A DNA stretch of 64,000 nt from a virus. Shown piece after piece: positions 659 through 21,594 of the stretch. Position 1 is the first letter of the stretch. Every line of letters starts with the position of its first letter. Below the pieces are notes generated by a model. That model was not told the origin of the DNA, did no database searches, and saw only the letters and a list, made by a program, of their open reading frames with translations. Location: IMG/VR virus record IMGVR_UViG_3300018007_000001; one strand, 5' to 3'. Position numbers and translations under genes: made by a program.

Positions 659-1225
659 CTAATCCGGCTTCTGTTGCTTGAACGTTCGAATCGATTCTTC
701 TCTTGTTTTCGGTTCGCCTTTGATAAAGTGCGAATTGGATTTCGGCTTTTCAACGATGAGTGCGCCAATCGCCTCTTCGTATTCTTTCCACGAGATCCCC
801 ATCTGAGCGGAGAGGGTCATTTCAATCGCTTTGGCCGTTAGGTGTGCGTCACGGTAGGGCGCATCGGGTTCCTCTCCGGGCTCGCCGTTGCCTTTGTATT
901 CAAGATCGAAGGCGTTGATTGTCTCATCGGAGACGCCGGCATTCCGCGCGAGTAATCTTTCAACCATCGCGTGAATCAAGAGCATTTGGTTATAGACGGG
1001 ATTTCCGGTGTCCGTGATTATGAATTCCAGCCGATCCCCGACCTGACGCCAGTCGTCCAATGTCTCATAGGCTTGGGCGTCTTGCTCGACAAAGGAAACC
1101 TTAATGTGCTTGACGCCTGGGTCGATAATTCGGCCAGTTCCTTTGCAGGCGAGGCATTCAAATTCGGAAGGATGCCGACCTGAGCCCTTGCAGTTGTAGC
1201 AGAGTGCGGTTAGCGTATTGGTCAC
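659..1225 (-). CDS. hypothetical protein with DnaJ-type CxxCxGxG zinc-finger repeats
   Basis: 188-aa ORF. Two CxxCxGxG units (CYNCKGSGR, CLACKGTGR) near the N-terminus. GTG start overlaps the stop of the giant gene (GTGA). Confidence 0.55.
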   Translation of the reverse strand: MTNTLTALCYNCKGSGRHPSEFECLACKGTGRIIDPGVKHIKVSFVEQDAQAYETLDDWRQVGDRLEFIITDTGNPVYNQMLLIHAMVERLLARNAGVSDETINAFDLEYKGNGEPGEEPDAPYRDAHLTAKAIEMTLSAQMGISWKEYEEAIGALIVEKPKSNSHFIKGEPKTREESIRTFKQQKPD

Positions 1226-7200: not shown

Positions 7201-7416
7201 CGTTCTATCCCCGGAAGCGGGCTCGGGCGCTTGTAGGCGATTCTGTGGCGATGTGGCGCTTTTTGACACATCTGCGACCGCCCGAATGTAGGGATCGATC
7301 GCCTCATGCTTGATTTCGGAGAATCCAGGAGTTTTAGGAAGAGGGGACGGCGTTTCGCCGCTGATGATTTGCGGGATTATCTGAGCGTAAGGATCGGTTT
7401 GCTCGAGTCCGTTCAT
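1222..7416 (-). CDS. giant polyvalent virion protein (internal/ejected protein candidate) with HExxH metallopeptidase-like and ParB/Srx-like motifs
   Basis: Uninterrupted 2064-aa ORF. HELTH at aa 1363-1367 (nt 3316-3330). IIDMNGNVLGGNSRSMML, with GGNSR at nt 2266-2280, resembles the ParB-fold GxxR motif. Long P/E/G/A-rich linkers. It is the last gene of the virion module. Confidence 0.6.
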   Translation of the reverse strand: MNGLEQTDPYAQIIPQIISGETPSPLPKTPGFSEIKHEAIDPYIRAVADVSKSATSPQNRLQAPEPASGDRTAVQVGKEPTEPESKPQRMPVASDESLYDQWNRILRVGPYEGIESANAHAKPGPYVTTLAPADEQKFQQWVKANHVPWRDEPNADYDMRGFYKALMAGDPDAKQALSAFDRRMHFPDTYKTPYHKTFSNESKYALPSAPHWVGEKLVDEGGNVITDETPAPTTRGQIVARLNKLNKVVESLAPHGRLLGELSATVLDKKIKPEYLDLVTKLRRMGPSPTAHTIEAPPDLTDWMAPKVGPSVTSRPATPEEEEGALPDVSGKLQPKQKSEDELWGAWHQARNIGDFGGQIDAAKNYLQMYPNGQYASWMQETLNHFSETRTYSSTRKGMQVTDAEGNVVSNRGAYATFPVAQIEGLRKAGYSDDQILKEIQDNAGRQMGLSDTEMAALTEKYGQHPLGNLVEPGTSTKSSVDSIIRQGQGHGGLAEFNIDPETVSALLRDRQLYRPLATQTEEMARGLHFTGDDFLNSVIKDPKITPDIKAAAALLQNSPDAKRLLDTTAGGVLDSAARLAQTVHNIGDYLDHPVGKANQFFSDLLTGGALSEKYAKKGKVYGQISRSDLADRLSDEAENVAGKYGVGKDAQSSAAIRHGAKLIANMFPIVLSAQMGGITGLGSYGFFEGAQKGPGSAAMTALAAAGPYAIVTKSPLAGYLREALVGRLTPSREMIQAALSAGTEEEAIDTAARAIQAKVMAQVVGMTAERALRAGTFLATAEAINGARQGRLMNAKEIEETVAQMIALEAIPAVRAALEIPGAGGEVRDLLGDVLARERAGQMRNVTPRGPVEPAPEEARTPVGEIPSAGQTWGGLRGNRFLRGGQAQLGEGEPPQEPTPPKGPRGLAPGPAAPKQLGPAPEGGITDAEEIRSDEGQIYRGGRIRAGSEGEGGADIQRAEEARRGASRPAQRTEAQAPNVIEREPEAPSRHVEIRPEEEPARVAVKDRPAPIEIVVGDQVTHPALNRGQPMTVVAANEDSVKVEIPGKTKPITIATDSKVGRELKPVEEEAKGGPRIEEAAKRPEVEPGAAERPVGVAAVQEPPERKRKAEAQALEPWQQTRAEYRAAQNREKVLAITSALQVGRPITLTTQYRRDPLTSPEHIRMTPSAGVQIRQATKWVNLTGPQVDQLAGQAGMKIPPPSEAPMHSELVKQAVARGEKVPESVLAEYPRSQKAARLLGMLAEPEAPLTTDLSLPSGRVSSREAQSSNMALAGWDPSGHYLFVNPKGLGMLSELAGHNITGVTMDSPAAYQYAAKATAKARRSTGEEAENYHALARALYEGASSKFEFAVGRPHPTTYKHELTHVADYAVRRYYGKEIPVGAALEIPSYQKVAKAVKKRGYAWLSDPRLVVHEAAAHIAAGQEQELGMSEDDALDFMDGYFNMIGRAFAPDALNRFHHLDGKLKEVKDEVKAKLEQDRAPEKGRAVAGRPGLRTVAKGRERGAQGVSQEAESLAPLSAQQLDALKDLVQTLIDEDVADPAEIEKEVESLLGPEGHGKIKDALPMIVGEMTAPEPKEEPSGKPEKITEAPEAEPTETTLKPKLSETREPGGPRSIGEATQIVIPGTNKTINARYAIRELADVFPSHDPLTFQPNPAYQWVNDRHYDREKFYQQEVMTQSSPDKFLPKRLINNSDTAENGPPIIDMNGNVLGGNSRSMMLGRFYRAEGAGQPYKAELYKQAPIYGIALPEIVKMKQPILVREVTDENLVPHQAITELNVSGTRALTPQERAVAEAGQMKDATVNYLAGQIESGGPEATLSKVLEAKGPAIVEHLIQSGVFQPQERNALLKAGGILPEARQRIERLLLGRIFRDLDQMGRTPSYVRQNIERAAPSLIKLQADPEWDLTEEIRNAIDLITDAKAAGVGKDLEGYTKKEGSLFVEKPFTAREIQLGNALQMGPIKTAKAFRTYAEAREPGGLFAQAVTPTDAFIQAFGGKPEEVETPGMFSLAKLPALTKRVDNMSDSERQTLLKQIDDEIARQAFEGAKVAANCIEHGGRFSILP
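4404..4634 (-). CDS. candidate overprinted small ORF (76 aa) in an alternative frame of the giant gene
   Basis: ATG at 4634 is preceded by AAGGGGGA 7 nt upstream. Product is MPRKYEAMRDKFIAEGESEQEAKGKAARIFNAQRKPDEAPV..., which reads as helical and protein-like. It lies over a low-complexity linker of the giant ORF. Confidence 0.25.
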   Translation of the reverse strand: MPRKYEAMRDKFIAEGESEQEAKGKAARIFNAQRKPDEAPVGPHSEPKPKPPMSLSESRKHHHGMSKSDLKKSRRG

Positions 7417-7422
7417 CGAAGG

Positions 7423-8829
7423 TCATTGTACACTATACCCGTGAGCTTCCAAGTCCTGCCTGAGTGAATCAATATCGGTTATCCCTCTGGCCTGCACGTC
7501 CGGATGCTGGAGAAGTTGCGCCAGCGCCGAAGATGGAACGGTCTTCCCTGGACTCGATTCTTGATTACTCAACGTCGGGACGCCGTTTTGCATTGACGCC
7601 TCGGTATCAGCTTCGCCCTCCGGTTCTTCAAGACCGCCTTCGCCGGGCTCAGTCATTTGAGCGGTCGGCTTAGTGACCGTGTGCTTGAAAGGGTCGCGCT
7701 TTGGCGGCGTGTAACCCGGAGCGGGGGTTTGGTCTACGTCGGTCTCTTCGTCCGTGTCGCCCCCGCCCCCTTCGGAAGTCGCGGCGCTCGGGATGAACTT
7801 CACGAATGGATACCCCCCGGCACCGGGCCCGCCCTGAATCTCATCAGGGTAAGCCGCCGTAGCCTCATCGACCGCGGCTTTGGCCGCTTCCCAATCGCCC
7901 GGAAGGTCGGATGTCCTGGCCTTGTTGATGAGCGTCTGAGCACGAGTGAGCATTGTTCGTGCGCCAGCAGAGGGACCGGCCTTTACGGTTTTCTCCTTTG
8001 TTTTCTTGCCAGCGCCTTTAATGATTCCGAGATCAACAATTTTCCGAGTTTTCGGATCGTAGGCGGCATAGTGAGCATCGCCCTTGTCGTCTACCGTATG
8101 GCTGAAGTCCGTCAGATCCGGATTCTGTCTTTTTTTCGCTTCTTCAATGTTCTTCAAAGCCTGGGCGCGTCGCTCCGCAGCCAAGCCCGGAGCTTCGACT
8201 TTAGATCGGCGCACGGCCTGAGTCGGCCCAAAGCCTTCAAGTGGCCCGGCCGGCACGGTGACATAAGGATCGGTGATATTCAGCTCGGCCTCTTTTTCAA
8301 TTCCCGCCGCCCTGCCCCTTTGCGCCGCCCCCTCGGTCTCAGCGGCGATTTCTTCTTTCCGGCTTGGCAGGTTGTATTGCTGACCGCCCGGAGCTGTTAC
8401 TGTTGGCCTGAAAGACTCGGCGGTTGGTGGCCCCAGCGCTTCCCTTGCCGCCGCGTCCCGTCTGACGGCTCCTGGCGTCGCGGGGATCGCATGGGCCTTG
8501 GCAAGCGCCAGGGTCGTATTGAAATCTTCAATCTGTCGGGCTCGCTTTGCCTCATCAAGTTTCAATTGAAACATCTGAGCCTGTTGCTCGCGCTGTTGTT
8601 TCCTGAGCTTCAGATTCTCGACATAATCATGCATCTCCATAGCCATTCGGTACGGGCGAAACATTCCCAAAATGGTTTTGAACATGCTTTGATGATCGAC
8701 ACTCGGTTGGGGGACCGGGGGCGGCGCGGTGTTCATGTCCTGAAGAGGCAACGGGGAAGGGGCCGGTAGCTGATTGGGCGCCGGCATCGGGGCGGACATA
8801 TCGGGAATGACAGGAAAGACTGAGCCCAT
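7423..8829 (-). CDS. hypothetical virion-associated protein (P-rich N-terminus, coiled-coil segment)
   Basis: 468-aa ORF immediately upstream of the giant gene. Coiled-coil-like LKLRKQQREQQAQMFQLKLDEAKRARQIE. No recognisable catalytic motif. Confidence 0.5.
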   Translation of the reverse strand: MGSVFPVIPDMSAPMPAPNQLPAPSPLPLQDMNTAPPPVPQPSVDHQSMFKTILGMFRPYRMAMEMHDYVENLKLRKQQREQQAQMFQLKLDEAKRARQIEDFNTTLALAKAHAIPATPGAVRRDAAAREALGPPTAESFRPTVTAPGGQQYNLPSRKEEIAAETEGAAQRGRAAGIEKEAELNITDPYVTVPAGPLEGFGPTQAVRRSKVEAPGLAAERRAQALKNIEEAKKRQNPDLTDFSHTVDDKGDAHYAAYDPKTRKIVDLGIIKGAGKKTKEKTVKAGPSAGARTMLTRAQTLINKARTSDLPGDWEAAKAAVDEATAAYPDEIQGGPGAGGYPFVKFIPSAATSEGGGGDTDEETDVDQTPAPGYTPPKRDPFKHTVTKPTAQMTEPGEGGLEEPEGEADTEASMQNGVPTLSNQESSPGKTVPSSALAQLLQHPDVQARGITDIDSLRQDLEAHGYSVQ

Positions 8830-8832
8830 GAG

Positions 8833-9267
8833 TTAGACTCCTGGCGCACGTTTCTTCATTTCAGCGATCATTTCCGTTAATGCGCTAAGATCCGGGTTGG
8901 TATTCCGGCGTGCACGAATCGAGTCGAAATAAGAATTCGGATTTGCGACTACCCATCCAATACGCTTCGCTCTCGCCAGAACCCATAGCGCGATTCTTGC
9001 CGCGTAATAGTGCCGACAGTCGTCAACAGTGAAAAGTGTCTGGCATGAATCTGCGGCAAAGCCGAGGCACCGAACGGGGCGGCCGTTTAGGTTAAGGCGC
9101 GAATTAGGAAGCCGGGCGTCAAAACGGTCATAGATTTTCAAATCGCTCAGTATTTCCGCCGAGACATGAAGAATTAGAGCGTTCGGAAAAATCAATTCTC
9201 CGAGCGGAGCCTGCCATGCCGGCTTGATTATCACCATCTCACGTTTAACGCAAGCGCGAAATTTCAT
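8833..9267 (-). CDS. hypothetical protein
   Basis: 144-aa ORF with a 4-nt overlap with the upstream GNAT gene and the same strand and spacing as its neighbours. Confidence 0.6.
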   Translation of the reverse strand: MKFRACVKREMVIIKPAWQAPLGELIFPNALILHVSAEILSDLKIYDRFDARLPNSRLNLNGRPVRCLGFAADSCQTLFTVDDCRHYYAARIALWVLARAKRIGWVVANPNSYFDSIRARRNTNPDLSALTEMIAEMKKRAPGV

Positions 9268-9863
9268 AGCGAAACGACCTCCGGGCTTTGCTCAGATTGC
9301 TCGACCTCAAACAAAAACTCAGAATTGCGATTCTCCCATTCCGTGACAGATAGTGCGTAGAGTTCCGCAGCGACTTCCGCGTCATTCTGCTTGCGAGGAT
9401 TGATCAGCCCAATACTCTTAGCCCCGATCTGGAAATAGAGCCTCTTGAGTGGTTCATTGTGAGCCAGAACCGGAAAGAAAACAAGATCGGCGCCGCTGTC
9501 GTCAAACAACTCGCGAAGAGCCAGATTCATAGCCGTGCGCGTGTATCGGCCTCGCCAAATGTCTGCCTTGAAAATTGCCGACATCTGGGCCGGGCATTTC
9601 AATTCCGGAATCAACCAGCCGCTGGCGTATTCCTGCGGAGCTCTCGCTTCGATATACCCGCCAATTTCGCCGTCGTGATAGACCGCCCAACTCGAATAGT
9701 TTTCGTTGTATTGGCAGCTTTTCATGAAGGAGTCAAGATCCTGCGGCATTGAATCATCGACAACGCTATCCTTGATCCGCTCGCGCCAGGCGAACAGCAT
9801 TGGAAGTTCGACCCGCGGGAAAGGTGAGGAAATCGTTATGTAAGGATTGTAGGAATGGCTCAT
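9264..9863 (-). CDS. GNAT-family N-acetyltransferase (RimJ/RimL-like)
   Basis: 199 aa. The C-terminal half, ...RGRYTRTAMNLALRELFDDSGADLVFFPVLAHNEPLKRLYFQIGAKSIGLI..., matches the GNAT motif A/B arrangement by eye. Confidence 0.55.
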   Translation of the reverse strand: MSHSYNPYITISSPFPRVELPMLFAWRERIKDSVVDDSMPQDLDSFMKSCQYNENYSSWAVYHDGEIGGYIEARAPQEYASGWLIPELKCPAQMSAIFKADIWRGRYTRTAMNLALRELFDDSGADLVFFPVLAHNEPLKRLYFQIGAKSIGLINPRKQNDAEVAAELYALSVTEWENRNSEFLFEVEQSEQSPEVVSL

Positions 9864-10138
9864 TGACCCTCAACTTCAACCTGCTTTACAAATCCAGAGA
9901 TCATAACCAGCTCCATACCATCGCCCTTAAAAACCAAGCCGATGCCTCGCGGCCTACCAAAGCCGTCAAGGGTCCCTGGCGTATCAAAGCCCTCAAGCGT
10001 TACGTCGATGATTTCGGGAGCGGGCGCACCGACGCCATCTATGATTTCCGGATATACTTTGATCGGTAGATCACCGTAAATTTCGATCAATTGTTCCACT
10101 TTTGCTTTAAGCTCTGACCAATTCATTTGATACCCCAA
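9860..10138 (-). CDS. hypothetical protein
   Basis: 92-aa ORF whose stop overlaps the GNAT start (ATGA). It also overlaps the lysozyme 3' end by 16 nt. Confidence 0.55.
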   Translation of the reverse strand: MGYQMNWSELKAKVEQLIEIYGDLPIKVYPEIIDGVGAPAPEIIDVTLEGFDTPGTLDGFGRPRGIGLVFKGDGMELVMISGFVKQVEVEGQ

Positions 10139-10698
10139 AATGATTTGAACGCCGCCATATCTCCATTGAACAGATCGATGTCAACGACTCCGAGCCCGGG
10201 AAAATTCTTAATCGCGTTCTGCCAAATCAGGTAGCTTTGAAACCCCTCGGGAAGATTCGGTTTCGGACCATGCTCAGCCAGCCAGAGGGGATAAAATCTC
10301 AGCATGTCCGTGTCGTGTTCCTTGAGCCAGGAGCCGCTGTAAAGAATAGTTCGGCCGGGTCGGAAGATTCCGACCTTCGCCAGAAAGAGGGTCGCTTGGC
10401 CTGCGCTCATTGACTCGCCCGTAGGGTTCGGTTCGAAGTCCAATGCCAAAACATCGGCCGTGCTTGCGACTCTCATAAAATGCTCGGACTGAAAAACCGG
10501 GTCGTCCCCGGTTCCGAAGTGATAAGCCCCTACCGGAATTCCGAGATCCCGACATTCCTTCAATCGCTCTTCATAAGTAGGGTCAACGAAGGTGAGGCCC
10601 TCAGTGGCTTTCAAAAAGACGAATTGAAGCCCGCTCTCTTTGGCGATCGAGAGTTCTATGCCGGTGTTGAAGTGACTCAGATCCGCACCTATGACCAT
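10123..10698 (-). CDS. GH25-family lysozyme (endolysin)
   Basis: IGADLSHFNTGIEL...LQFVFLKATEGLTFVDPTYEERL...GIPVGAYHF follows the GH25 muramidase N-terminal signature (G-x-D-x-S-H ... IKATEG ... GAYHF). Confidence 0.8.
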   Translation of the reverse strand: MVIGADLSHFNTGIELSIAKESGLQFVFLKATEGLTFVDPTYEERLKECRDLGIPVGAYHFGTGDDPVFQSEHFMRVASTADVLALDFEPNPTGESMSAGQATLFLAKVGIFRPGRTILYSGSWLKEHDTDMLRFYPLWLAEHGPKPNLPEGFQSYLIWQNAIKNFPGLGVVDIDLFNGDMAAFKSFWGIK

Positions 10699-11196: not shown

Positions 11197-11682
11197 TCAA
11201 TCTCTATATATGCCGTAAGATACCATATCTACCATTTCGCCACAACGCTGAGTGTGCTTAAACAGCGTTCCCTCATACCGAGCCCCGATTCTATCAAGCA
11301 AACCGATCACACGATGATTGTCCGCATAGGCCAGACACCAGAGCTTTTTGTAGCCGAGGCTCCAAAGCAATTGTTGGCCCTGACAGACTGCCGGGATCAC
11401 GGTTTCGGCGCCCCAGAATTCGCGCTTGAGAAAAACATGGACTTGGCAAAGAGACGGGTCAAGATGAATCGCGCTCAAAACGCCGCCGAGTTCTCGGTCG
11501 CGGTAGACGCCTCGCGCGATCGTGATTGGCGATTCGGCGCGTTTCATCTCCATGAAGTCTTCGAGGGTCTTAGGGCTAAAATCGTTAGCTACGCGGTCCC
11601 AAAAAGGCTTGAACCAAACCCAGGCGGCCGGCCAGTCTGCGTCATCCCAGGGGTGAAGGGTGATCATACTCGTTGCTGGCAC
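11197..11682 (-). CDS. GNAT-family N-acetyltransferase (RimJ/RimL-like)
   Basis: 161 aa. ...VHVFLKREFWGAETVIPAVCQGQQLLWSLGYKKLWCLAYADNHRVIGLLDRIGARYEGTLFKH...DMVSYGI matches the GNAT core. The start overlaps the methyltransferase 3' end by 19 nt. Confidence 0.65.
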   Translation of the reverse strand: MPATSMITLHPWDDADWPAAWVWFKPFWDRVANDFSPKTLEDFMEMKRAESPITIARGVYRDRELGGVLSAIHLDPSLCQVHVFLKREFWGAETVIPAVCQGQQLLWSLGYKKLWCLAYADNHRVIGLLDRIGARYEGTLFKHTQRCGEMVDMVSYGIYRD

Positions 11683-13502
11683 AAAACAACTTCAAAATCA
11701 ATTTTTGTTTCAGGATGCTTCGATTCATAGATCCTCCTAAAGAAGCTCTTTCGGGCTGTTTCAATTATATCGACGCCACCATCAAGCCGGCCCTGTTCGC
11801 CGTGGTGTTTGACGAGTAAGGCATGGTGGATATGGAGGGTTCGGAATCCCACCGCTTCGCAGAGTTGCCGCCACTGGTCGGGAAAATCGACATATTTTTT
11901 CCGCCTCACATATCCCTTTAAGACCCAAATTGCGTGCGCGCCTGGAGCAAGGACAAGATGGGTTTGTTCGACTATCTGACGAGCGGCCGGCCAAAAGTCA
12001 TTCGCCATTTGCCCCTTCGACTCTGCGGCATAACCCCTCCCGTAACCGGGCTGACCGCCTTCGTTCTTGTTCCAAGAGTCCATTTGATGTTTGTGGTGCC
12101 CACCTGTTTCATACGGCGGGCTCGAAATCATCGCCCCTAACTGCCCTTCGGTATGCCCGTATTCCGCTGTTAGTGTTTTGTCCTTGCGCCGTTTGGGATC
12201 TTTGAACAATCCGCCTCGTTTGTCGGGGTCATCGCTGGCGAGCGATTCAGCGTAGGGCGGGGAACCGACAACCAAAGCGTGATTGCCCTCTTTCATTGCT
12301 CCGAGTTGGCCCGATGTTTGCCCATAGCCTTCGGCGTGGGCCTGAGAGTTTTTGCCGGCTGGATTACCTGTTAGCTTGCTGGCGTCAATGCCGTTGCCGT
12401 CATGAACACTGGCGGCATAAGGCGGCGAACCCACGGCCAAGCCGGGCGTCGACGTCCAGGCTTCAGGATCGTGGTTTGTCGGAACATCCCCTTTGACCGA
12501 TGGCGTTGTGTTCTGGCGGGCGTCAACAAAGGGTGGCGAGCCGATAGCCGCCCCGTAATTCAGTTGAGCCCGCAAGGTGCGCTCGTGCTTTGTTCCCGGT
12601 CCCCGCTTTCGGCCTTTAGATGAAGGCCCGACCTTGCTCCAGTCGATTCCGTGATCTTGGGCGTTGACCGAATCCGCGTATGGCGGACTCCCCACGGCCA
12701 TCCTTAGCCCCTCTTCGGTCGCGGGGAGGTTGCCAAGATTGCCGTCCGTTGAACCATATTCCACCATCTTAGCGTGCCCAGTTTTGTCGGTCGTAAGGTA
12801 GCCGGTAGCGGGGACGAGCCGTTCCGTTAATATGCCGTGGTCGAACCTGTCATCGAGATCAAGGATATCCTTCAGCATCACCCAGTGTGCTGGCGTCGGT
12901 ATTTCCGTCCCGGCGGGCCTGCCCTCGTACCATGAATACAGAGTGACAGTACCAAGCGCGGAGTCGACATCTTTTCTGCTCAGGCCCTTTGCCTTACGGG
13001 CCTCGCGGAGATAGGCGGCAACGGCCTTTGCGTCTGGCAAAAACGGCCTAGTGCGCTTCTCCTCTGGGCGACTCCCAACGGTGCCGAGTGAATCACAAAA
13101 CGGCGGACTCGAAACCACGATCCCCGCCTGCTGCAAAACCTCGCTCAGTCGCCGCGAATCGCCCTGAATAATTCGTGCTGTTCCAAAGCCAGGGACCGTG
13201 TACATGTATCGGGCCATCCATGTACCGATGTTCGCGTTGCCGAGTAAGGCGAACTTGTTTTCCAATTCGCAGCCGACCCAATGACAGCCTGCTAACATAC
13301 AATCTAGAGCGCCCAGAGCAACGCCCCCGAAGGGATCAACGACGATAGATCCTGACGGAAGCCAGCCCTCAGAGCGAGCGTGCTCGTAGATACGCCGGAT
13401 CAGCCCACGGGAAAATTTAGCCGGGTGCGCGAACGCATCCTCCACGATCACGCCTTTCCAGTTGTCGTCATAACAACCAGCCCATTCGTCGGGTTCAATC
13501 AC
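11664..13502 (-). CDS. N6A/N4C-type DNA methyltransferase with six (S)PP(Y/F) motif-IV copies
   Basis: GTG start with GAGG 8 nt upstream. HPAKF...VVDPFGGVALGA...GCELE is the SAM-binding motif I region. SPPF/SPPY sit at aa 132, 272, 322, 359, 414 and 461 (nt 13098-13109, 12678-12689, 12528-12539, 12417-12428, 12252-12263, 12111-12122). The C-terminal FWPAARQIVEQTHLVLAPGAHAIWV is the usual post-motif-IV region. Confidence 0.8.
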   Translation of the reverse strand: MIEPDEWAGCYDDNWKGVIVEDAFAHPAKFSRGLIRRIYEHARSEGWLPSGSIVVDPFGGVALGALDCMLAGCHWVGCELENKFALLGNANIGTWMARYMYTVPGFGTARIIQGDSRRLSEVLQQAGIVVSSPPFCDSLGTVGSRPEEKRTRPFLPDAKAVAAYLREARKAKGLSRKDVDSALGTVTLYSWYEGRPAGTEIPTPAHWVMLKDILDLDDRFDHGILTERLVPATGYLTTDKTGHAKMVEYGSTDGNLGNLPATEEGLRMAVGSPPYADSVNAQDHGIDWSKVGPSSKGRKRGPGTKHERTLRAQLNYGAAIGSPPFVDARQNTTPSVKGDVPTNHDPEAWTSTPGLAVGSPPYAASVHDGNGIDASKLTGNPAGKNSQAHAEGYGQTSGQLGAMKEGNHALVVGSPPYAESLASDDPDKRGGLFKDPKRRKDKTLTAEYGHTEGQLGAMISSPPYETGGHHKHQMDSWNKNEGGQPGYGRGYAAESKGQMANDFWPAARQIVEQTHLVLAPGAHAIWVLKGYVRRKKYVDFPDQWRQLCEAVGFRTLHIHHALLVKHHGEQGRLDGGVDIIETARKSFFRRIYESKHPETKIDFEVVLCQQRV

Positions 13503-13513
13503 TGGTAAACCTC

Positions 13514-13554
13514 AAAAAAATCGCCCGGCGCGGGTATGCGCCCCTACGCCGGGC
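13514..13554 (-). terminator. intrinsic terminator (GCCCGGCG/CGCCGGGC stem followed by U7)
   Basis: On the minus strand the 8-bp GC stem (13547-13554 pairs with 13523-13530) is followed by GATTTTTTT (forward A-run 13514-13520). It lies about 10 nt before the SD of the methyltransferase. Confidence 0.6.
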
Positions 13555-13607
13555 CTTTCGTTAAAGGAGAACAAAATCCAAAGAAAGATGAAATGTTCAA
13601 TTCAAAC
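13514..13607 (-). ncRNA. candidate ~95-nt small RNA or leader (promoter to terminator unit)
   Basis: Bounded by promoter f (-10 at 13614-13619) and the terminator at 13514-13554. No start codon is usable from that TSS. Contains UUCUCCUUU (anti-SD-like). Confidence 0.3.
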
Positions 13608-13659: not shown

Positions 13660-15984
13660 CTAGGTCAGAAGAACGGATTTCAGCACGCCGCCGATATTCG
13701 CCCACAGCTTCGTGTCCCCGCTTCCGGAATTGTACCAAACGGCAAACCTGCCCTCTAAAATATCGGAAGTCGTCGGGTCGCTCGCTGACTCATAAGCCGC
13801 AATTCCATTATGCGCGATCAGCGCCCTTGTAATTATCAACCCGCTCGCGTCCAGGATGTCGGTCGAGATTCGCGCTGAATTGATCTTCCTGGCCGAGACT
13901 GAACCTGTAGTGATGCTCGGACAGGTAAAGCCGCCCACGTCGAAAATCGCAACTGCATATTCCCCGGAACTCTGCGCGCCGACAACAAGGTACTTTCCAG
14001 CCGCTACGGGTTTTCCGGTTGTCCAGGGGTTCACGCTAGGAATCACATTGCCCCCTGAGTCCGTCCCGGCAAAGGGCCCGCTTGATGTCTGATTCGCCGT
14101 AAGGCCGCTCAGATCCTCGCCGGTCGCCACTTCGCCCACAAGCTGAGCCGAACCTACCGTATCACCATTAGCCCCGAATATCTGGCCGTCCGCCACATCG
14201 ATCCAGCCGAGCCCCTTCACACTGAGCCCGTCGATTATCGTATTCAGGTCGTAGGCGCTTCCTTCATTGTTGACAAATTCGACAACCCAAAGCGTCCCGT
14301 TTAGGTCGGTCAGATAGATTATCGTTCCTTCGGCGATCACGTCGGCGACGCCAGAAAAACCGCTTGCGCTGACTGCGAGAGTAGGGGAAACAGGGTCGCT
14401 GATGTCGTAGACAAACAATTCGCCCGCGGACGTGTCTACGAGAAGGAGCCATTCGGTGTTGCCCCAAACACTCGTAAAACTTCCATCGCCGAAAGTCGCC
14501 ACAAGCAGAGGATCGGCCGGGTAGGTTATATCGAAGATGGAGCAATGCGCGTCCCCAAGCGCTAGGTACAATTGATAGCCGCAGACGTCCATGTCCTTGA
14601 CAGCGCCAGCAATCGAGAAATTTCCAACATACTTAGGATTCTGAGGGTTCCGGACGTCGAGGATCCAAACCTTGCTTGTAGAGTCGTCCGTGAAATAAAC
14701 AAAGCCGGCGCTTGAGCAGGCCCGTCCGTTCTTCCCGATGGTCCCGGCTTCAAAAGGAATCAAATAGGCGGCGCTCACGAGCGTTTCAATATCAACTGTC
14801 CAGACGCAGATTGTTCCCGAGGCGTCGCCGGGCCCGCCAGTCCCCCCGCCCCCGCCGCCGCCTTCTTCCAGATGCCAGATTGAAAACTCAACCTGAAGGG
14901 CCGTCACATCAGAAGCGCTCTGATCAATCGTGTAGAGTGTGAGGCCGTCGCTCGACATATCGAACGCCGAAACACCGCCATAGCCAGAGGTCGGCCAGTC
15001 TGGGTAGTCGGTCGAAAAATAAGGCGTGTCCGGATCCTGCGTTGGCGAAGCTATGTCGCTGATGTCAAAGACCGTGATGTCCCCTTGGCCACAATAGAGC
15101 TTAGTGCCATCACCCGTGACCCTAAAGGGTTCGCCGCCAAGGATCAGTCCTGTACTTATCAGGGCGCCGGTATCGTCGTAAAGCCACTGATTTACGTTGT
15201 TTTGAAAATAGACGTAGCCTGTTCCGCTCACCGCAAAGGCGCTCACCGAAGCGCCCAGAATACTTACGTCGATTAGTGCGATTCGCGCGAGCGTGTGTGT
15301 ATTCAGGATTAAGAGCCCAGAGTCTTCGGCTTCGGTTCCGTTGCTGTTGTAGATGCAAAAGACAGTCGCGCCAGCCGCTTCCGCCGCGATGTCGTCGCCT
15401 ACGGGTTGAATGGCGCTCAACGTCGTGTCGTCGCCAGGCGGGCCGATCGGATTATCGGAAACGATCACCAAGTCTGAGGGAGCAGTGAGACTTTGCGAGG
15501 CCGCGGCTTCTCCATGCCAGGGTGGCCCCCCAGGTTCAGGCGTACCTCCTATTATTTCCGAATCGGCGCCAACGCCAAGAATAACAATCCCGTCCGTGCC
15601 TTCAACGATCGCATTGACGGTGATCCCGATTTGTGGAGGCGTTCCGGCGTCAACAAAATCCGTGCCCGAATAAGACGTTGCAAGATTCAGGGAAGACGGG
15701 TCGGAGATGTCAAACACGTACACGATTTGCGAGCCCTTGACCAGTACGTAATAATTTGTCCCGTCAATTGCATATTGAGTGAAGGCGTTGCCATCGCTGA
15801 AACTGGCAAAACTGAGAATAGCGGGCGAGGCCGGGGTACTTATATCAATCGCGGTTAGCGTGACAGTTCCGCCGCCGATGCGGTGGCCGTCCAGGTAAAA
15901 CGCAGTTGTTCCGATCACATCAAGCGCAAGGGGCGCAGTGCCTATAGCGTCAAGGTGTGAAATTGGATTGAGAACCAGAGGCAT
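13660..15984 (-). CDS. LVIVD-repeat beta-propeller protein (tail fibre/receptor-binding candidate)
   Basis: 774 aa. Repeated strings YVFDISDPSSL, VFDISDIASPTQ, WILDVRNPQNPKYVG, SIFDITYPADPLLV and FVYDISDPVSPTL match the LVIVD repeat pattern. Confidence 0.6.
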   Translation of the reverse strand: MPLVLNPISHLDAIGTAPLALDVIGTTAFYLDGHRIGGGTVTLTAIDISTPASPAILSFASFSDGNAFTQYAIDGTNYYVLVKGSQIVYVFDISDPSSLNLATSYSGTDFVDAGTPPQIGITVNAIVEGTDGIVILGVGADSEIIGGTPEPGGPPWHGEAAASQSLTAPSDLVIVSDNPIGPPGDDTTLSAIQPVGDDIAAEAAGATVFCIYNSNGTEAEDSGLLILNTHTLARIALIDVSILGASVSAFAVSGTGYVYFQNNVNQWLYDDTGALISTGLILGGEPFRVTGDGTKLYCGQGDITVFDISDIASPTQDPDTPYFSTDYPDWPTSGYGGVSAFDMSSDGLTLYTIDQSASDVTALQVEFSIWHLEEGGGGGGGTGGPGDASGTICVWTVDIETLVSAAYLIPFEAGTIGKNGRACSSAGFVYFTDDSTSKVWILDVRNPQNPKYVGNFSIAGAVKDMDVCGYQLYLALGDAHCSIFDITYPADPLLVATFGDGSFTSVWGNTEWLLLVDTSAGELFVYDISDPVSPTLAVSASGFSGVADVIAEGTIIYLTDLNGTLWVVEFVNNEGSAYDLNTIIDGLSVKGLGWIDVADGQIFGANGDTVGSAQLVGEVATGEDLSGLTANQTSSGPFAGTDSGGNVIPSVNPWTTGKPVAAGKYLVVGAQSSGEYAVAIFDVGGFTCPSITTGSVSARKINSARISTDILDASGLIITRALIAHNGIAAYESASDPTTSDILEGRFAVWYNSGSGDTKLWANIGGVLKSVLLT

Positions 15985-15989
15985 TAGGT

Positions 15990-16700
15990 TTAACTTCCTC
16001 CGGTTTCAGCTACCGATGTGATCAGAACGAGGTAAGGACCGACGACCTGAACATCAGGCGTTACGAGCTGGCTGCCCCCGAATGTTTGATCGCCCGTTGA
16101 AGGCACGAGCGCATTCAAAAGCGCAAACTGCGAACCTCCGCAACCGGCCGAGCGCCCCCCACCGCCGCCGCCCTTTCCGCCGCCGCCAGGGGGACCAGAT
16201 CCTCCGGTTCCCCCTCCCGGCCCGGTCTTTCCGATGGTAGTCGTAGCGGTTGCCTGAGCATTGGTGATCCCCGCGTCTATCAGTCTGCGCGTCGTTCTGA
16301 GGTTCACGGCGTCGAGGTCATCCAGGGGGTCGGCAAGCCCGGCGATTCTATCCGCGCCGACGTTGGAATACGGAGCGGTCGCGCCCACTTTACCCGTCGC
16401 CGCGCCCCCGCCAAGCACTAAGGCTGGCTGAGTGACGCCCCGGTTGTCGGATTGAGTTTGCTTGGCGATTCCAACCGGCCCGAAATGTCCAGACTGCGCC
16501 GAATGAGCCTTGCCGAGCGTCGAAAGTATGCGCTGCATCTTTGAGCCGAGCCCGGGCAGCATTTTGTTCAAGGCGTCTATTTCACCGCCATTGAGAGATT
16601 CTTCGACGCGCCGCAAGTTTTGAAGATTGCGGATCGCGCTGCTAGGAGTAGGGCCAAAATGTCGGTTAGCTGGGGCCATTCTGGCATTAGGGTCTTTCAA
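15990..16700 (-). CDS. tail fibre-like protein with glycine-rich tract
   Basis: 236 aa. GLADPLDDLDAVNLRTTRRLID resembles the common fibre motif (P..xxDA.N..Y.D). Collagen-like tract GPGGGTGGSGPPGGGGKGGGGGG. Confidence 0.5.
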   Translation of the reverse strand: MKDPNARMAPANRHFGPTPSSAIRNLQNLRRVEESLNGGEIDALNKMLPGLGSKMQRILSTLGKAHSAQSGHFGPVGIAKQTQSDNRGVTQPALVLGGGAATGKVGATAPYSNVGADRIAGLADPLDDLDAVNLRTTRRLIDAGITNAQATATTTIGKTGPGGGTGGSGPPGGGGKGGGGGGRSAGCGGSQFALLNALVPSTGDQTFGGSQLVTPDVQVVGPYLVLITSVAETGGS

Positions 16701-16847: not shown

Positions 16848-16920
<73 letters not shown>

Positions 16921-16934
16921 ATAAATCGAAAATG

Positions 16935-16976: not shown

Positions 16977-19868
16977 TTATCCCGGCTGATCCTGATTGAA
17001 TTTCAATTCATTCCACACCGCCGGCTGAGTCGGCGTGACCGGCAACGGCATCCATTCCCAGGTCGTCGCATTAGGCCGACCGATGTATTTTCCCCAAAAC
17101 CGAATCGATTCAATCCTCATATTCCCCGCAGGCGTAACCATAACTCTCCAAAGGTGTCCCTTGTAAGTCCCGGTGCAATCAAGAATGACCGCTTCCTCGC
17201 CGTCAGTTTCGGCAAGGTCAAAAGTGTTCAAAGTTTCAAAGGAACCGCCGCGCACGCCGCCATCGGATTCGAGCTCGAACGTTCCGGTAGAACTCGAATC
17301 GTAGGTTATTTCGATCCACTTGACCATCAGCACGCGCTCAGAACCAAAGTCCAGCGCGTCCGAAAGATAATATTCGCCCTTCGCGCCCTCCAAATAGGTT
17401 CCGTAGACTTGGAAAAGCGCCTTGCCACCATAGCATCGGAGATCCGTCCCGTACAGTACAAGCCGAAACAGGCGCCCTATCACCTTCACGTCTTGAGCGA
17501 TAACAACGGGCTCCCAGCGCCGATCACTTGTTAAGCTTATCGTGAGCCCGGTAGTCCGGTCTGCCGTAGGTTCGGGCCGATCGCTTTTGACCGTGACGTC
17601 CGCTATTGCGGAATTGTAAATATCAAAGACCATTTCACGAAGGCGACACATCTTGCCGCCGCCTGGTGAGAACTCCGCGGTATCGTATGCCTTGCCTTCT
17701 CTCGCGATGATGTAATAATTCAAGGCCATCTTGTAGATAATGACCTCGCTCGAAACCGTGCCTGTTATTTGAATCGCGCAGGTCCGCGCATCGAAGCCCT
17801 CGCCGACCGAGCTGAATCTCAATACAAACCGTCCGTCCCCGGTGATCGTCCCAAGCGCAACGGTTCCGGCGTCCGTTACCGCTTCAACCGTGAGAACCTC
17901 GGAGCCGCAATCCGCCCAAATCGTGAAATCTTCCCAACGCTTTTCGTTGTCGATCATTCCCCCGTTGAAGGCTTTCGACAGGTAAGTTACCTCAATAGCG
18001 CCGTCTATATCTGAGTACCCGCTTTCGAGCTCGACAACATCCCCGGCGGTTGTCGCCCCAAGAAGCGAATCAATATCATTGTAGAAACAGGTAAAGGTTC
18101 GGGTGTCTTCCATCCAGCGGTCAGTTGCCATTTCGTACTTGTAGGTCACCGATCCATCAGATGCCCAGAAGATTCCATTTCTATAGCCGACCGCGGCCGA
18201 ACTCGCGTCAAACTTAGAAAACGGCGCATCGCCTTTGAAAACCGGGTCAACTTTTTTTGAAAGGATCTGAGCGGCCCCGCCGTTGAAGAGTGCGAAGCAA
18301 TCGTTCATAACCGCCCCGTCGCCGTTCGGCCCCTGAGCAACACCATTCGCCGAAGCTATGCCCATCTTGCAGGAAGACTGGAAGACTGAGCCTGAAATCG
18401 CGCCCGGGTCGCCCTGAATAACGAGAACTCCCGCCTGCCCGTACATCCAAATGACGCCAGGCTGCATTGTCGCAGCCAGAAGATCGCCGACCGTTTCGTC
18501 TACCGCCTCCCAATCCCCATCGGCTAGTAGAGGGCCGCGGAAAGCATAAGGCTTGTTCAGGTGGCTCCAATAATACTTGTTCCCTCCAAAAGCTATAAGG
18601 CGTCCAAAGAACGGCCCTATTAGTCCACCTACGACCGGCGGCTGGTCGTGATCATCCTCGAGCTGAATATTCAGGTTCGTCAAATCGTCGTCGGCATTCC
18701 CATCCGTGTAGTCGGTTACGCCGTTCAACTTCGGGGAGTCCGGAGTCTCATAAACCGCGCCGAGGTTTCCCCCGGTCCTGTAAAAATTGACCTTTGTAAT
18801 TTGAGAGTCAACTGAGACTCCGATATTGGTTAAGGCGCCGGCGCCCCGGTTGATCGTGATAGGGTCCGAGATTGGCGAGGGATCGGTTTCGTGACCGGCG
18901 TCAGTCGTCCAGGTGTAATACCATTGAATATCATCGCCCTCGATCGGATGCCCCGAGTCTCCAATCAACTCCCAGGAGTCCCAGCGAATCGTTGTCTTCG
19001 CGTTCATGTCGGCTTTCACGCGAACCGCGACGGCCGTTGAGTAGTTCTTGCTTGGAGTCTGGCCGATCCTGAGCATGTACCCGTAGCGCTTCTTATCCTT
19101 CGCTCCGGAGTCGACGTCGAGAGGCCGCTTCCGAATGTGAAACGTGACCGTATCGCGCCCACCCTCTTGAATGTCTTTGGCCGCCATATACCCGGTGTAA
19201 TAGTCGAGTGTAAAGCTGCCATCGTTCACGTCAATATCAAAGGCCAGGGCGTTGACCGCGTTCCATTGCTTGCAAAAGACCCTGATTCGGAAAATGTCGT
19301 CCAAGGTTCCGCCGGTGGCGAAATCGGCGCTGATCGTCTTGGTGGCCGAATACACGACAGAAGAGGTCGCGATCAATTCGAGCGTGGGGGCATAGCTTTC
19401 ATCCCCAGAAGGCGTGACGCTAAAGCCCGCGCTGAAATCGACAACCTGAATGGTTGATTCAGTCGTAGTGTCCGCGGCCGGCTTATCGGTCGGGGGGACA
19501 GCGAGCCATTGCCAATTGCTGCTGCCATCGGATTTCTGTTGGCCGCCGGCCGACATGGCCCATAGAAAATCCATCCATCCTACAAGTCCAACTAGATCGG
19601 AAGAAACGCCGGTGATAATCGCTGACCCTTCAAATAACACCGAGCCGCCGGCTGCCGCCCAGACGCCGCCAAGAGCGCGGGTCATAGCAACGACGGTCGC
19701 CCCGGCACTGAAGCGAAGCGTATGACCTTTTCGAGATCGAAGGGCTCCCGCGGAGTCAAAGGAGAAGTTTTTGCAGACTTGCGCCTCCGAGTCGTCAATC
19801 TGATCGCCAGGCAACAGAACGTTGATGCCGCCGGCGACGAATTTTACTGTCTGTTTCTCGTAGGGCAT
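16977..19868 (-). CDS. large virion structural protein (tail tube/nozzle candidate by size and position)
   Basis: 963-aa ORF directly abutting 19869..20507. Beta-rich composition. No catalytic motif recognised. Confidence 0.45.
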   Translation of the reverse strand: MPYEKQTVKFVAGGINVLLPGDQIDDSEAQVCKNFSFDSAGALRSRKGHTLRFSAGATVVAMTRALGGVWAAAGGSVLFEGSAIITGVSSDLVGLVGWMDFLWAMSAGGQQKSDGSSNWQWLAVPPTDKPAADTTTESTIQVVDFSAGFSVTPSGDESYAPTLELIATSSVVYSATKTISADFATGGTLDDIFRIRVFCKQWNAVNALAFDIDVNDGSFTLDYYTGYMAAKDIQEGGRDTVTFHIRKRPLDVDSGAKDKKRYGYMLRIGQTPSKNYSTAVAVRVKADMNAKTTIRWDSWELIGDSGHPIEGDDIQWYYTWTTDAGHETDPSPISDPITINRGAGALTNIGVSVDSQITKVNFYRTGGNLGAVYETPDSPKLNGVTDYTDGNADDDLTNLNIQLEDDHDQPPVVGGLIGPFFGRLIAFGGNKYYWSHLNKPYAFRGPLLADGDWEAVDETVGDLLAATMQPGVIWMYGQAGVLVIQGDPGAISGSVFQSSCKMGIASANGVAQGPNGDGAVMNDCFALFNGGAAQILSKKVDPVFKGDAPFSKFDASSAAVGYRNGIFWASDGSVTYKYEMATDRWMEDTRTFTCFYNDIDSLLGATTAGDVVELESGYSDIDGAIEVTYLSKAFNGGMIDNEKRWEDFTIWADCGSEVLTVEAVTDAGTVALGTITGDGRFVLRFSSVGEGFDARTCAIQITGTVSSEVIIYKMALNYYIIAREGKAYDTAEFSPGGGKMCRLREMVFDIYNSAIADVTVKSDRPEPTADRTTGLTISLTSDRRWEPVVIAQDVKVIGRLFRLVLYGTDLRCYGGKALFQVYGTYLEGAKGEYYLSDALDFGSERVLMVKWIEITYDSSSTGTFELESDGGVRGGSFETLNTFDLAETDGEEAVILDCTGTYKGHLWRVMVTPAGNMRIESIRFWGKYIGRPNATTWEWMPLPVTPTQPAVWNELKFNQDQPG

Positions 19869-20507
19869 TTACTGTGCGCGTCCCCAATATGCGCCAAAAA
19901 TCTGCTCATACAAAGAAGCGATTCCGTTGCAGGTCCCTCCGACTTCGGGCATTTCAAAATCCGATTCCTTCAAATAGGCCTCGGCGATCACCTTGAATTC
20001 CAGATAGTCGCCGACCGCTGCCGGCGTGTTGATCGCGGTCGATTCATGCGCTTCGTCCAAATTGCAGGGGTATCCATGATAGATGACTTCTGGACTATTC
20101 CCCGCGTCCGCCAGCGCTGGAACGGGATAAAACCCAATCACATTCGGCCCGTTCTTGTCGGCGTACCATCTTGAAACCGGCGCCTGAGTCGTCGCTGCCG
20201 CCGTCTGATAGGCGTCGTCCAGGCATTCAAGCTCGTGCGTTGAACTCGCATTGAGGGGCTTGCCGTAGGTGACCTGCATCGTGTCCAGATGCAGGGTTGG
20301 AGTCGTGTAGATCCCGGTCCCCGAAACAAATACGATTGAGTCCGTGTCGCGAGTCACGAACGCGCCGTAGTTCTCGGCGAAGCGTTTCAGCCAATCGGCG
20401 AAGAAATCAGTCAACTCGGCGTCGGAAGTGAAAACCACGTCTGATCCCGAGGTCGCATGGAAAATGGGCCAGAGGTCGCCTATCAGTGTTTCAACATTGA
20501 GCGCCAT
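19869..20507 (-). CDS. virion structural protein (tail adaptor/tubular protein A candidate by position)
   Basis: 212-aa ORF whose stop abuts the start of the 963-aa gene. The call rests on position only. Confidence 0.35.
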   Translation of the reverse strand: MALNVETLIGDLWPIFHATSGSDVVFTSDAELTDFFADWLKRFAENYGAFVTRDTDSIVFVSGTGIYTTPTLHLDTMQVTYGKPLNASSTHELECLDDAYQTAAATTQAPVSRWYADKNGPNVIGFYPVPALADAGNSPEVIYHGYPCNLDEAHESTAINTPAAVGDYLEFKVIAEAYLKESDFEMPEVGGTCNGIASLYEQIFGAYWGRAQ

Positions 20508-21117: not shown

Positions 21118-21594
21118 ATGAAATACGCATCTACGACGGAGGTAAGTAGCGAGAAATCACAAGCGGAACTTCGGACCATTTTGAACCGATACGGCGCGAC
21201 GAAGTTCGGCTATCTTGAGGAAGAATCGCGGTGTGCCATTATGTTCGAGGCTCAGGGTCGGCGCGTTCGCTTTATCCTACCCCTGCCTAGTCGAACCGCC
21301 CGGGAAGTTACGCACACCAAGGATCGCGGCCTACTACGCTCAGTCAACGCTCAGCATGAAGCTTATGAGCAGGCTATCCGGCAACGCTGGCGCGCACTCT
21401 GTCTTGCTGTGAAAGCAAAGCTTGAAGCCGTCGAGAGCGGTATCGCAACTTTCGAAGAAGAATTCATGGCCTATGTACTTTTACCCGATGGCCGGACGGT
21501 CGGGGAATGGATGCAACCGCAACTTGAGGAAACCTATCAGAGCGGGAGAATGCCGCCGTTGATGCTTACATCGGGATCTGAGCCGATCAACTAG
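21118..21594 (+). CDS. conserved-looking hypothetical protein on the opposite strand (moron-like)
   Basis: Start trimmed to MKYASTTEVSSEKSQAELRTILNRYGATKFGY... (158 aa). It is the only plus-strand gene inside the tail module. Its 3' end overlaps the 3' end of the neighbouring minus-strand gene by 4 nt (21591-21594). Confidence 0.6.
   Translation: MKYASTTEVSSEKSQAELRTILNRYGATKFGYLEEESRCAIMFEAQGRRVRFILPLPSRTAREVTHTKDRGLLRSVNAQHEAYEQAIRQRWRALCLAVKAKLEAVESGIATFEEEFMAYVLLPDGRTVGEWMQPQLEETYQSGRMPPLMLTSGSEPIN

Follow-up and report, generated by a model that had tools for sequence, protein, structure and literature searches.

The gene and its module array

The 64,000-nucleotide (nt) stretch of the IMG/VR virus record IMGVR_UViG_3300018007_000001 (hereafter, the window) encompasses a methyltransferase gene on the minus strand whose 612-amino-acid (aa) product combines a single S-adenosylmethionine (SAM)-binding region with six copies of SPP(Y/F), the motif IV of amino-methyltransferases (Table 1). 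A reading of this DNA from the letters alone (hereafter, the sequence-only reading) had delimited the same open reading frame (ORF), to which only the strand is added here, and the six motifs sit at the residues it gave, namely, SPPF132, SPPY272, SPPF322, SPPY359, SPPY414 and SPPY461. From the composition, 0.009 such strings are expected by chance. The YG.T.G[NQ]LG and GID.SK strings that were also reported as repeated occur three times (aa 249, 393 and 448) and twice (aa 285 and 371), respectively.

The DNA of the repeats is old and fully diverged, as had been surmised. Tandem Repeats Finder reports no tandem repeat in the module DNA, the longest exact word common to any two units is at most 10 nt, and the codons of the invariant motif serine differ among the copies (AGT, TCG, TCC and AGC). 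The identical protein is called on 15 contigs of about 68.9 kb from independent assemblies (ERZ27257557, ERZ27257551 and SRR7498056), where the gene lies at differing offsets, as expected of a circularly permuted phage genome. Given this divergence and the recurrence of the protein in independent assemblies, as well as the existence of at least 1,027 protein clusters of the same kind, the chance that the repeats are an artefact of assembly or annotation (collapsed or stuttered repeats, or a chimeric ORF) is negligible. Phase variation driven by a diversity-generating retroelement or by DNA repeats was also dropped as an explanation because the inserts are unrelated in sequence and length and DNA repeats are absent.

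The repeating unit corresponds to a canonical methyltransferase segment, strand beta4 followed by the SPPY loop and the string Y..PGQLG, which is present in one copy in the Thermus thermophilus DNA methyltransferase TTHA0409 ('VVTSPPYwtlkrYedtPGQLG..F'). The 5-aa loop of TTHA0409 corresponds to variable inserts of 25-120 aa in the modules. The sequence-only reading held that the first and last copies were normal and the four middle ones inserted. The copies are better described as six like modules, given that the first, middle and last ones all lie in the same beta4-like context, f-D-A-V-V-S-SPP[YF]-A-e-S (family-wide, the fourth motif residue can also be W or H); the last copy, however, is indeed set apart, by a glutamate directly after the motif (aa 465, window positions 12108-12110). 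The insert of module 5, of the type 'ESLASDDPDKRGGLFKDPKRR.DKTLT', is the commonest in the family.

The long insert of module 1 includes a helix-turn-helix (HTH) domain, in agreement with the HTH-like insert noted previously after the first copy. The HTH_31 profile matches the whole protein with an E-value of 0.0025 and matches 7 of the 9 members of an alignment of this cassette, with the best E-value of 9e-6; the cassette profile matches the small DNA-binding proteins 8tac and Aca3; and AlphaFold2 (AF2) predicts helices at aa 158-172, 176-194 and 204-214 with a predicted local distance difference test (pLDDT) score of about 80. Other cassette types contain conserved clusters of cysteines and histidines (PC.SQ, GC.HTGG and HH.H), e.g., 'SPPFSPDQPCASQ...' in the homologues P0009, P0011 and P0057 and 'SPPYADGCAHTGG..' in P0046 and P0027; 'ETGGHHKHQMD' in module 6 is another His-cluster cassette. 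Such cassettes might bind metals or have a chemistry of their own.

Table 1. Features of the methyltransferase gene and its surroundings in the window
Feature	Position	Strand	Description
Methyltransferase gene	11664-13502	minus	612 aa; GTG start, TGA stop at 11664-11666; ORF list and translation
N-terminal core half, aa 1-126	13125-13502	minus	strands beta1-beta3; Pfam, PADLOC, TTHA0409 alignment, AF2
HPAKF motif-X-like helix	13413-13427	minus	within N-terminal core half
Motif I DPFGG	13323-13337	minus	within N-terminal core half
Motif II ELE	13260-13268	minus	within N-terminal core half
Motif III QGDSR	13152-13166	minus	within N-terminal core half
Array of six modules, aa 127-502	11997-13124	minus	each beta4-like strand, SPP(Y/F), variable insert and (Y..GQLG joint)
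Module 1, aa 127-266	12705-13124	minus	SPPF 13098-13109; 113-aa insert with HTH; joint YGSTDGNLG 12732-12758
Xre-type HTH core in module 1, aa 158-217	12852-13031	minus	HTH_31, profile matches, AF2 helices
Module 2, aa 267-316	12555-12704	minus	SPPY 12678-12689; insert type 'SVNA..HGIDWSK..G.RKRG..KHE.TLRA'; joint truncated (YG only)
Module 3, aa 317-353	12444-12554	minus	SPPF 12528-12539; short 'VDARQNTTPS.KG..PT.HDPEAW' insert; joint absent
Module 4, aa 354-408	12279-12443	minus	SPPY 12417-12428; joint YGQTSGQLG 12300-12326
Module 5, aa 409-455	12138-12278	minus	SPPY 12252-12263; joint YGHTEGQLG 12135-12161
Module 6, aa 456-502	11997-12137	minus	SPPY-E 12111-12122; insert type 'ETGGHHKHQMDSWNKN'; leads into helix alphaD
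C-terminal core half, aa 503-612	11667-11996	minus	alphaD, beta5, alphaE, beta6-beta7, terminal subdomain; AF2, TTHA0409, PADLOC
GNAT acetyltransferase gene	11197-11667	minus	downstream of the methylase; Acetyltransf_3, E 4e-5; gene calls on other contigs
Intrinsic terminator	13514-13555	minus	GC-rich hairpin and seven U; free energy -26.8 kcal/mol, z -2.6; ends the upstream LVIVD-repeat gene
2064-aa ORF	1222-7416	minus	ddrB-like ParB-superfamily domain (PF18763, aa 1629-1764, E 1.6e-13)
Second GNAT gene	9264-9863	minus	just past the endolysin gene
GH25 endolysin	10123-10698		
LVIVD-repeat protein	13660-15984	minus	774 aa, beta-propeller-like; internal Gly run (GGGGGGGTGGPG)
Gly-rich protein	15990-16700	minus	236 aa; long Gly-rich tract (GGGTGGSGPPGGGGKGGGGGGRS)
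tRNA-Met(CAT)	16848-16921	minus	
Internal-virion-protein homologue	16977-19868	minus	
SU10_adaptor paralogue	19869-20507	minus	
SU10_adaptor paralogue	21591-22352	minus	

The SAM-binding core and its lineage

The Pfam family N6_N4_Mtase (PF01555) matches aa 24-85 of the protein with positions 160-216 of its 221-position profile, i.e., with the C-terminal quarter, at a score (27.3 bits) marginally above the gathering threshold of 26.7. Motif I (DPFGG, aa 56-60) occurs once; together with motif II (ELE, aa 79-81), it is invariant across 60 homologues, and the Pfam and PADLOC matches cover the same block. The single Pfam match, the single motif I and the single core in the AF2 model bear out the one SAM-binding region of the sequence-only reading and rule out an array of several complete methyltransferase domains, which that reading had named as the finding that would speak against it. 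In the family alignment, about 130 aa at the N-terminus and about 115 aa at the C-terminus form conserved blocks on either side of a variable middle. The residues that are invariant in the 60 homologues are H26, P27, A28, D56, G60, E79, L80, E81, G114 and D115 in the N-terminal half and W504, F553, S586, F587, F588 and R589 in the C-terminal half; the latter half comprises alphaD (FWPAARQIVEQ), beta5 (AIWVLK) and a small conserved terminal subdomain with the motif SFFRR.

A search of the Protein Data Bank (PDB) with the single query sequence finds nothing significant, and a family profile is required to detect the relationship. This profile matches TTHA0409 (2zie) with an E-value of 5e-12, in permuted order: the C-terminal residues 192-276 of TTHA0409 align to the N-terminus of the family (HPA.F...DPFaG...EL), the N-terminal residues 16-56 (GDaR..L...vhLVVTSPPYwtlkrY) to motif III and an SPPY motif, and residues 55-96 (rYedtPGQLGHiedyeaF...LvPGGrlviV) to the last Y..GQLG joint, alphaD and beta5. 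Further matches at motif I are CcrM, the N4-cytosine methyltransferase 8s9n, M.PvuII, DpnA and MboIIA. Similarly, the C-terminal parts of the PADLOC Type II methyltransferase (MTase_II) profiles match the N-terminal core block of the query, and in the three-module homologue P0085 the two halves of these profiles are swapped, with their N-terminal parts matching the C-terminal core half. Because of the permuted alignment to TTHA0409 and the swapped PADLOC halves, the family core is a circular permutant of the PvuII/TTHA0409 branch of the beta-class amino-methyltransferases.

The linear order of motifs is X-I-II-III-[IV]6-V..VIII and thus differs from the beta-class order, IV-(V-VIII)-TRD-X-I, where TRD stands for target recognition domain. 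The termini of the chain fall between motifs VIII and X, where the beta-class TRD would be, and this place is taken by a small, highly conserved subdomain (aa 577-612 and 1-25), such that the module inserts are the only variable parts of the protein. Compared with TTHA0409 (2zie, 2zif and 2zig) and M.PvuII (1boo), the family shares the HPA.F...DPF(G/A)G...EL block of motifs X, I and II, motifs III and IV (GD.R..L....VV(T/S)SPPY), the Y..PGQLG string directly after motif IV, followed by alphaD and L.PGG..hV, the class-I Rossmann fold, and the Ser-type motif IV that is typical of N4-cytosine enzymes. In contrast to these enzymes, motifs X-I-II-III precede motif IV instead of following motif VIII and the TRD, the variable TRD is absent, the motif-IV segment is present 3-11 times rather than once, and the 5-aa loop is replaced with cassettes of 25-120 aa. 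The protein thus belongs to the amino-methyltransferase superfamily, as a permuted relative of PF01555 that departs from the beta class in motif order and in the lack of a TRD; confidence in this architecture and family assignment is high. NCBIfam yields no match above cut-off for the query, no Pfam family of C5-cytosine methyltransferases is matched, and the motifs are of the SPPx amino-methyltransferase type rather than the PC and ENV motifs of the C5 enzymes.

AF2 models were made of two full-length proteins, the query and P0085. In the query model, aa 1-127 and 500-612 form one split Rossmann core with pLDDT of about 87-98 (about 97 in the N-terminal half), where beta1-beta3 (aa 53-113) and beta5-beta7 (aa 523-571) exceed 90. 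As modelled, the core has the seven-stranded doubly wound sheet of class-I enzymes, in which the beta4 position is assigned with low confidence, and it is accompanied by motifs I, II and IV. Foldseek identifies class-I methyltransferases with E-values down to 7e-7 in the PDB and 7e-13 in BFVD; the top PDB matches are TrmN, Trm11 and Trm14, which have a linear-order DPPY motif, and the top viral matches are phage methylases. Some homologues are automatically annotated as TrmN6 or Trm11. The gamma-order (D/N)PP(Y/F) methylases (TrmN, Trm11, Trm14 and M.TaqI) indeed resemble the family in that motif I precedes motif IV, but the likeness is one of generic fold (template modelling score of about 0.36, with 8-9% identity), the signatures of the family are those of beta-class DNA methyltransferases, and a THUMP or other RNA-binding domain is absent.

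Enzymes with (N/D/S)PPY motifs include glutamine methylases (PMC7544214), peptide N-methyltransferases are among the generic class-I matches of Foldseek, and a G-Q/N-L-G string is present in the modules, so a protein glutamine (amide) methyltransferase similar to HemK or PrmB, or an enzyme that modifies its own GQLG motifs, was considered. This is very improbable because TTHA0409, a DNA methylase, already has Y..PGQLG as one structural element directly behind SPPY; in addition, the nearest sequence relatives are all DNA methyltransferases (TTHA0409, CcrM, 8s9n, M.PvuII, DpnA and MboIIA), the glutamine is absent from many modules, and the genomic context is that of a phage orphan methylase. The gene encodes a phage orphan SAM-dependent amino-methyltransferase, the substrate of which is most probably DNA. 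The product is probably N4-methylcytosine, given that every motif starts with serine, although a Ser-type motif is indicative of this specificity rather than proof of it.

Family size and exchange of modules

A word-indexed search finds 1,515 homologues, and phmmer, run exhaustively over 1.84 billion cluster representatives, finds 2,412 at E-values of 1e-3 or lower and 1,027 at 1e-30 or lower, so that the family comprises at least 1,027 protein clusters (50% identity) with the same architecture. The median core identity across the family is 51%. Counted downstream of motif I in 206 complete proteins, the SPP[YFWH] motifs number three in 56, four in 66, five in 40 and six in 19, with seven in 6, eight in 7, and ten and eleven in one each; five proteins have two motifs, four have one and one has none. 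Protein length is close to 320 aa plus 48 aa per motif. This sample was chosen with the six-module query, and the search was therefore repeated with the single-module member P0203. The best 120 matches of P0203 have no module (1), one (2), two (11), three (48), four (48) or five (10), i.e., at least three in 88% of the cases even in this census, and the nearest relatives of P0203 (73-80% identical) carry 4-5 modules. Given the agreement of the two censuses, at least three modules are the norm and the six of the query belong to the upper tail; the tabulation of repeat number that had been proposed as a check thus returns 3-11 copies as the rule.

All 879 intact motifs in the 206 proteins begin with serine, never with aspartate or asparagine, and end in Y (541), F (291), W (38) or H (9). 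A scan downstream of the conserved joints finds SPPx intact after about 96% of them. About 24 modules have single-substitution variants of the motif, e.g., SLPY, SSPY and SPVY; the degenerate forms seen after normal joints also include SPSF, SMPY, SRPY and SPAF, and the homologue P0068 (401 aa) has no intact SPPx at all. P0068 may be an inactive or regulatory derivative, or the variants may be sequencing errors.

The members of the family all come from phage-like contigs or metagenome-assembled genomes (MAGs), none from cultured phages, and the occurrences in GTDB are confined to MAG contigs from diverse phyla. A tblastn search of 50,697 cultured-phage records with the query finds nothing at 1e-5, and the same search with P0085 finds only matches to the motif I region that cover 17-23% of that protein. 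There is one noteworthy match in PHROGs, to a family annotated as of unknown function. Two homologue loci, L001 and L002, were inspected and are phage-like; the family gene (8001-9173 and 8001-9803, respectively) lies there in early or replication modules, near genes for DUF5131, a Lar-like restriction-alleviation protein, RNA ligase or DnaB. A literature search finds no description of this family or of any amino-methyltransferase with a repeated motif IV, in line with the sequence-only reading, in which no characterized amino-methyltransferase was known to combine several motifs IV with one SAM-binding domain.

The inserts behave as exchangeable cassettes. When insert types are clustered with strict thresholds and the conserved ends trimmed (the shared SPPY and GQLG ends otherwise merge all units), the recurring types are found to hold different ordinal positions in different proteins; the possibility, allowed for by the sequence-only reading, that the inserts are conserved nowhere among homologues can thus be set aside. 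The HTH cassette, for example, is found in 9 homologues, as the first module in P0066, the last in P0003, P0009, P0029 and P0069, an internal one in P0097 and P0171, and N-terminal in P0080 and P0088. There are 201 distinct architectures among 202 proteins, pairs of module types are found in either order (order consistency of 0.74), and proteins with cores 87-94% identical differ by the insertion or replacement of single cassettes.

The insert type accounts for 55% of the entropy at the fourth position of the motif that immediately precedes it, the residue that stacks on the target base according to a review of the beta class (PMC7544214), and 30-41% of the entropy of the next three residues, but 0-9% of that of the preceding strand and 2-5% of that of the next motif. 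Thus, SPP marks the sharp start of a module, and generic joints are provided by the strand, SPP and Y..GQLG. Strong purifying selection has kept the beta4/motif-IV element complete in each module, and the insert, which sits where the module faces the substrate, differs from one module to the next. The same type occurs twice in one protein in 2 observed cases against 27.3 +/- 4.7 expected (0 of 2000 shuffles reach 2), and, with last modules excluded, in 1 case against 21.4 +/- 4.1 expected.

In 10 of 231 proteins (P0038, P0080, P0088, P0093, P0097, P0150, P0168, P0171, P0198 and P0199), one or two complete modules are located N-terminal to the SAM-binding half. Three of these proteins (P0038, P0093 and P0168) begin with MIAIVGSPPx and have identical joints with three unrelated inserts; the N-terminal insert type of P0038 is that of the sole module of P0286. 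These [IV]-X-I-II-III-[IV]n-V..VIII forms look like intermediates of circular permutation by duplication.

Placement of the modules and phage context

Tentatively, we propose that the modules dock one at a time into a single scaffold and that the protein is a multispecific anti-restriction methylase, the likeliest of the readings considered, although we would put it short of an even chance. Under this scheme, the two constant half-cores would make up one scaffold that binds SAM and has room for a single beta4 strand, and the modules would take turns in this slot, as an instance of alternative-segment folding in nature. Every module would supply its own catalytic, base-stacking aromatic residue along with a recognition insert, such that one polypeptide could methylate several different sequences and shield the phage genome from several restriction systems. 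Tandem duplication of the segment would be initially neutral, divergence of the inserts would be at once useful to the phage, and modules could then be traded between phages as cassettes. The observed scarcity of duplicate types is as expected under alternative specificities. The proposal also draws on the beta4/motif-IV context retained by every module in spite of the diverged DNA, the co-variation of the fourth motif residue with the insert, the combinatorial and nearly order-free arrangement of cassettes, the single-cassette differences between close relatives, the N-terminal modules and the DNA-binding HTH fold of one cassette.

Several observations weigh against this proposal. The avoidance of duplicates might also reflect selection against misfolding of similar neighbouring repeats. 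The strict Y..GQLG joint is absent in about 29% of the non-last modules, including modules 2 and 3 of the query, and the N4-cytosine assignment is drawn from the motif serine. For the same insert type, the residue directly after the motif is glutamate in 92 of the 133 modules at the last position (69%) versus 26 of 382 others (7%; odds ratio of 31, p 5e-45), a bias that symmetric docking does not predict; the module beside alphaD therefore sits in a special environment. The inserts are mildly acidic, with a net charge of -3.3 per 100 aa. AF2 places no module with confidence, and in the query model the module strands 354-357 and 408-412, but not the first strand, are in beta ladders. Simple electrostatic binding of DNA by the inserts is a separate candidate that is not supported, given their slightly negative charge.

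The models that had been called for to locate the six SPPY loops contain a single core with all six in the low-confidence array: the array has pLDDT of 30-58, with only the HTH cassette reaching about 80. In P0085, the first strand is docked as beta4 (pLDDT of about 70-80) and aa 134-276 are undefined. The models thus back one core but do not tell where the modules are located.

In the query model, two module strands take part in beta ladders at the same time, which would be explained by an expanded sheet, in which the module strands would lie side by side between beta1 and beta5, in the order 3-2-1-[4a..4n]-5-7-6. The Y..GQLG joints would then be the crossovers and the SPPx turns would form a ladder, of which only the one beside beta1 would be catalytic, and the inserts would line one edge as a single composite, fast-evolving recognition surface with one complex specificity. 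Topologically, a doubly wound sheet lends itself to the addition of beta-crossover units, and this arrangement would account for the glutamate after the last motif, which would adjoin alphaD and beta5, for the generic, interchangeable strands and joints, and, by way of an aromatic/proline ladder, for the strict conservation of SPPx without catalysis in each copy. Yet AF2 usually models repeat sheets well, which is at odds with the low pLDDT of the array; the inserts are long, polar and devoid of regular secondary structure; and cores 79-94% identical carry from 1 to at least 5 modules, so that the C-terminal half would have to shift 5-20 Å from the SAM site. The modules without the joint that is needed as a crossover, the N-terminal modules and the free order of modules also fit less easily, and the avoidance of duplicates is not predicted. 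All considered, the expanded sheet is a serious rival, somewhat less likely than alternate docking.

Low AF2 confidence in the array could alternatively mean that a single copy is catalytic, either the last one, beside alphaD, or the first, and that the rest is a flexible, largely disordered accessory or regulatory tail that tethers the enzyme to DNA or to partners or regulates it, with the HTH possibly serving to bind an operator in autoregulation, as is the case for some Type II methylases. The distinct last module, the last-type SPPYE motif of the single-module P0203, the docking of the first strand in P0085, the HTH cassette and the modules that lack a joint all speak for such a tail. However, a disordered tether has no need of a buried-type hydrophobic strand and an SPP-aromatic motif, which are kept in about 96% of more than 650 internal modules, nor does a tail account for the co-variation of the fourth motif residue with the insert, the avoidance of same-type duplicates, or the norm of three or more modules (88%) even in the census that started from a single-module protein. 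We regard this explanation as slightly less likely again than the expanded sheet.

The alternate docking proposed here has its nearest counterpart in design among the multispecific C5-cytosine methyltransferases of Bacillus phages (SPR, phi3T, rho11s and H2). In these enzymes, tandem TRDs of about 40-60 aa between motifs VIII and IX take turns with a single catalytic loop that contains the PC motif, and provide protection from several restriction systems. As in those enzymes, there is one catalytic core in a phage orphan protein with short, non-redundant, exchangeable tandem modules, but in the present family the SPPx loop and the beta4 strand recur in every module, so the resemblance is an analogy of design and not of membership. 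The TRDs of Type I HsdS, Type IIG and Type III Mod proteins, which are swapped by recombination, fold as domains of their own, apart from the catalytic fold. A change of specificity by exchange of cassettes between conserved joints would be common to these systems and, as proposed, to the present family, in which, however, the catalytic loop itself houses the cassettes and is duplicated together with them. The non-specific phage or prophage adenine methylases M.EcoGII and Hia5 (PMC3299994, PMC7544214) are likewise phage-derived, TRD-poor beta-class cores with broad protection against restriction; they have a single DPPY and no module array, whereas the conserved, non-redundant cassettes of the present family argue for recognition.

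The genomic context of the gene is that of a phage orphan. The window represents a podovirus-like phage with genes for TerL, portal, SU10-type adaptors, an internal virion protein, DnaB, YqaJ and a GH25 endolysin, and the methylase is the only amino-methylase in it. No restriction endonuclease gene is adjacent, the neighbours being those for the LVIVD-repeat structural protein, the GNAT acetyltransferase and the endolysin; because a cognate restriction gene is absent from this position, the methylase is an orphan rather than part of a Type II restriction-modification system. The stop codon of the methylase and the start codon of the GNAT gene overlap as ATGA (11664-11667), which confirms the overlap given in the sequence-only reading and couples the two genes translationally. 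The same reading placed a promoter-terminator unit upstream; the terminator stands, with its hairpin, seven U and -26.8 kcal/mol, and is followed by GAGG (13510-13513) and the GTG start, but no sigma-70-like promoter was found in the sequence upstream of the gene.

The query gene is located in a late structural/lysis block behind the terminator, unlike the early or replication location in L001 and L002. The second GNAT gene lies just past the endolysin gene, and both GNAT genes thus belong to the lysis/tail block. All long ORFs of the window are on the minus strand. The LVIVD-repeat protein and the Gly-rich protein are probably tail or receptor-binding components. The adaptor paralogues, the internal virion protein and tRNA-Met suggest a podovirus similar to SU10 and the kuraviruses. 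The 2064-aa ORF, which also has weak matches to PHROGs 5143 and 2299, could encode a phage protein of the 'polyvalent' kind with a role in DNA modification or anti-defence.

The finding itself is real, reproducible and family-wide: a repeated motif IV per SAM-binding domain is the rule for at least about 1,000 sequence clusters from environmental phages. Even if a single copy is catalytic, hundreds of strictly kept, seemingly redundant SPPx loops demand a new structural explanation. If the modules dock alternately, the family would represent a new way to build a multispecific enzyme, by duplication of the active-site strand instead of addition of an external recognition domain, and it would give alternative-segment folding an example from nature. 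The engineering of programmable writers of N4-methylcytosine (m4C) or N6-methyladenine (m6A) could then draw on more than 200 small recognition modules that share a constant core of 245 aa, and the module count could aid the prediction of methylomes from phage sequence. For the phages themselves, alternate docking would add a new layer to the arms race with restriction, through the combinatorial swap of cassettes of about 50 aa.

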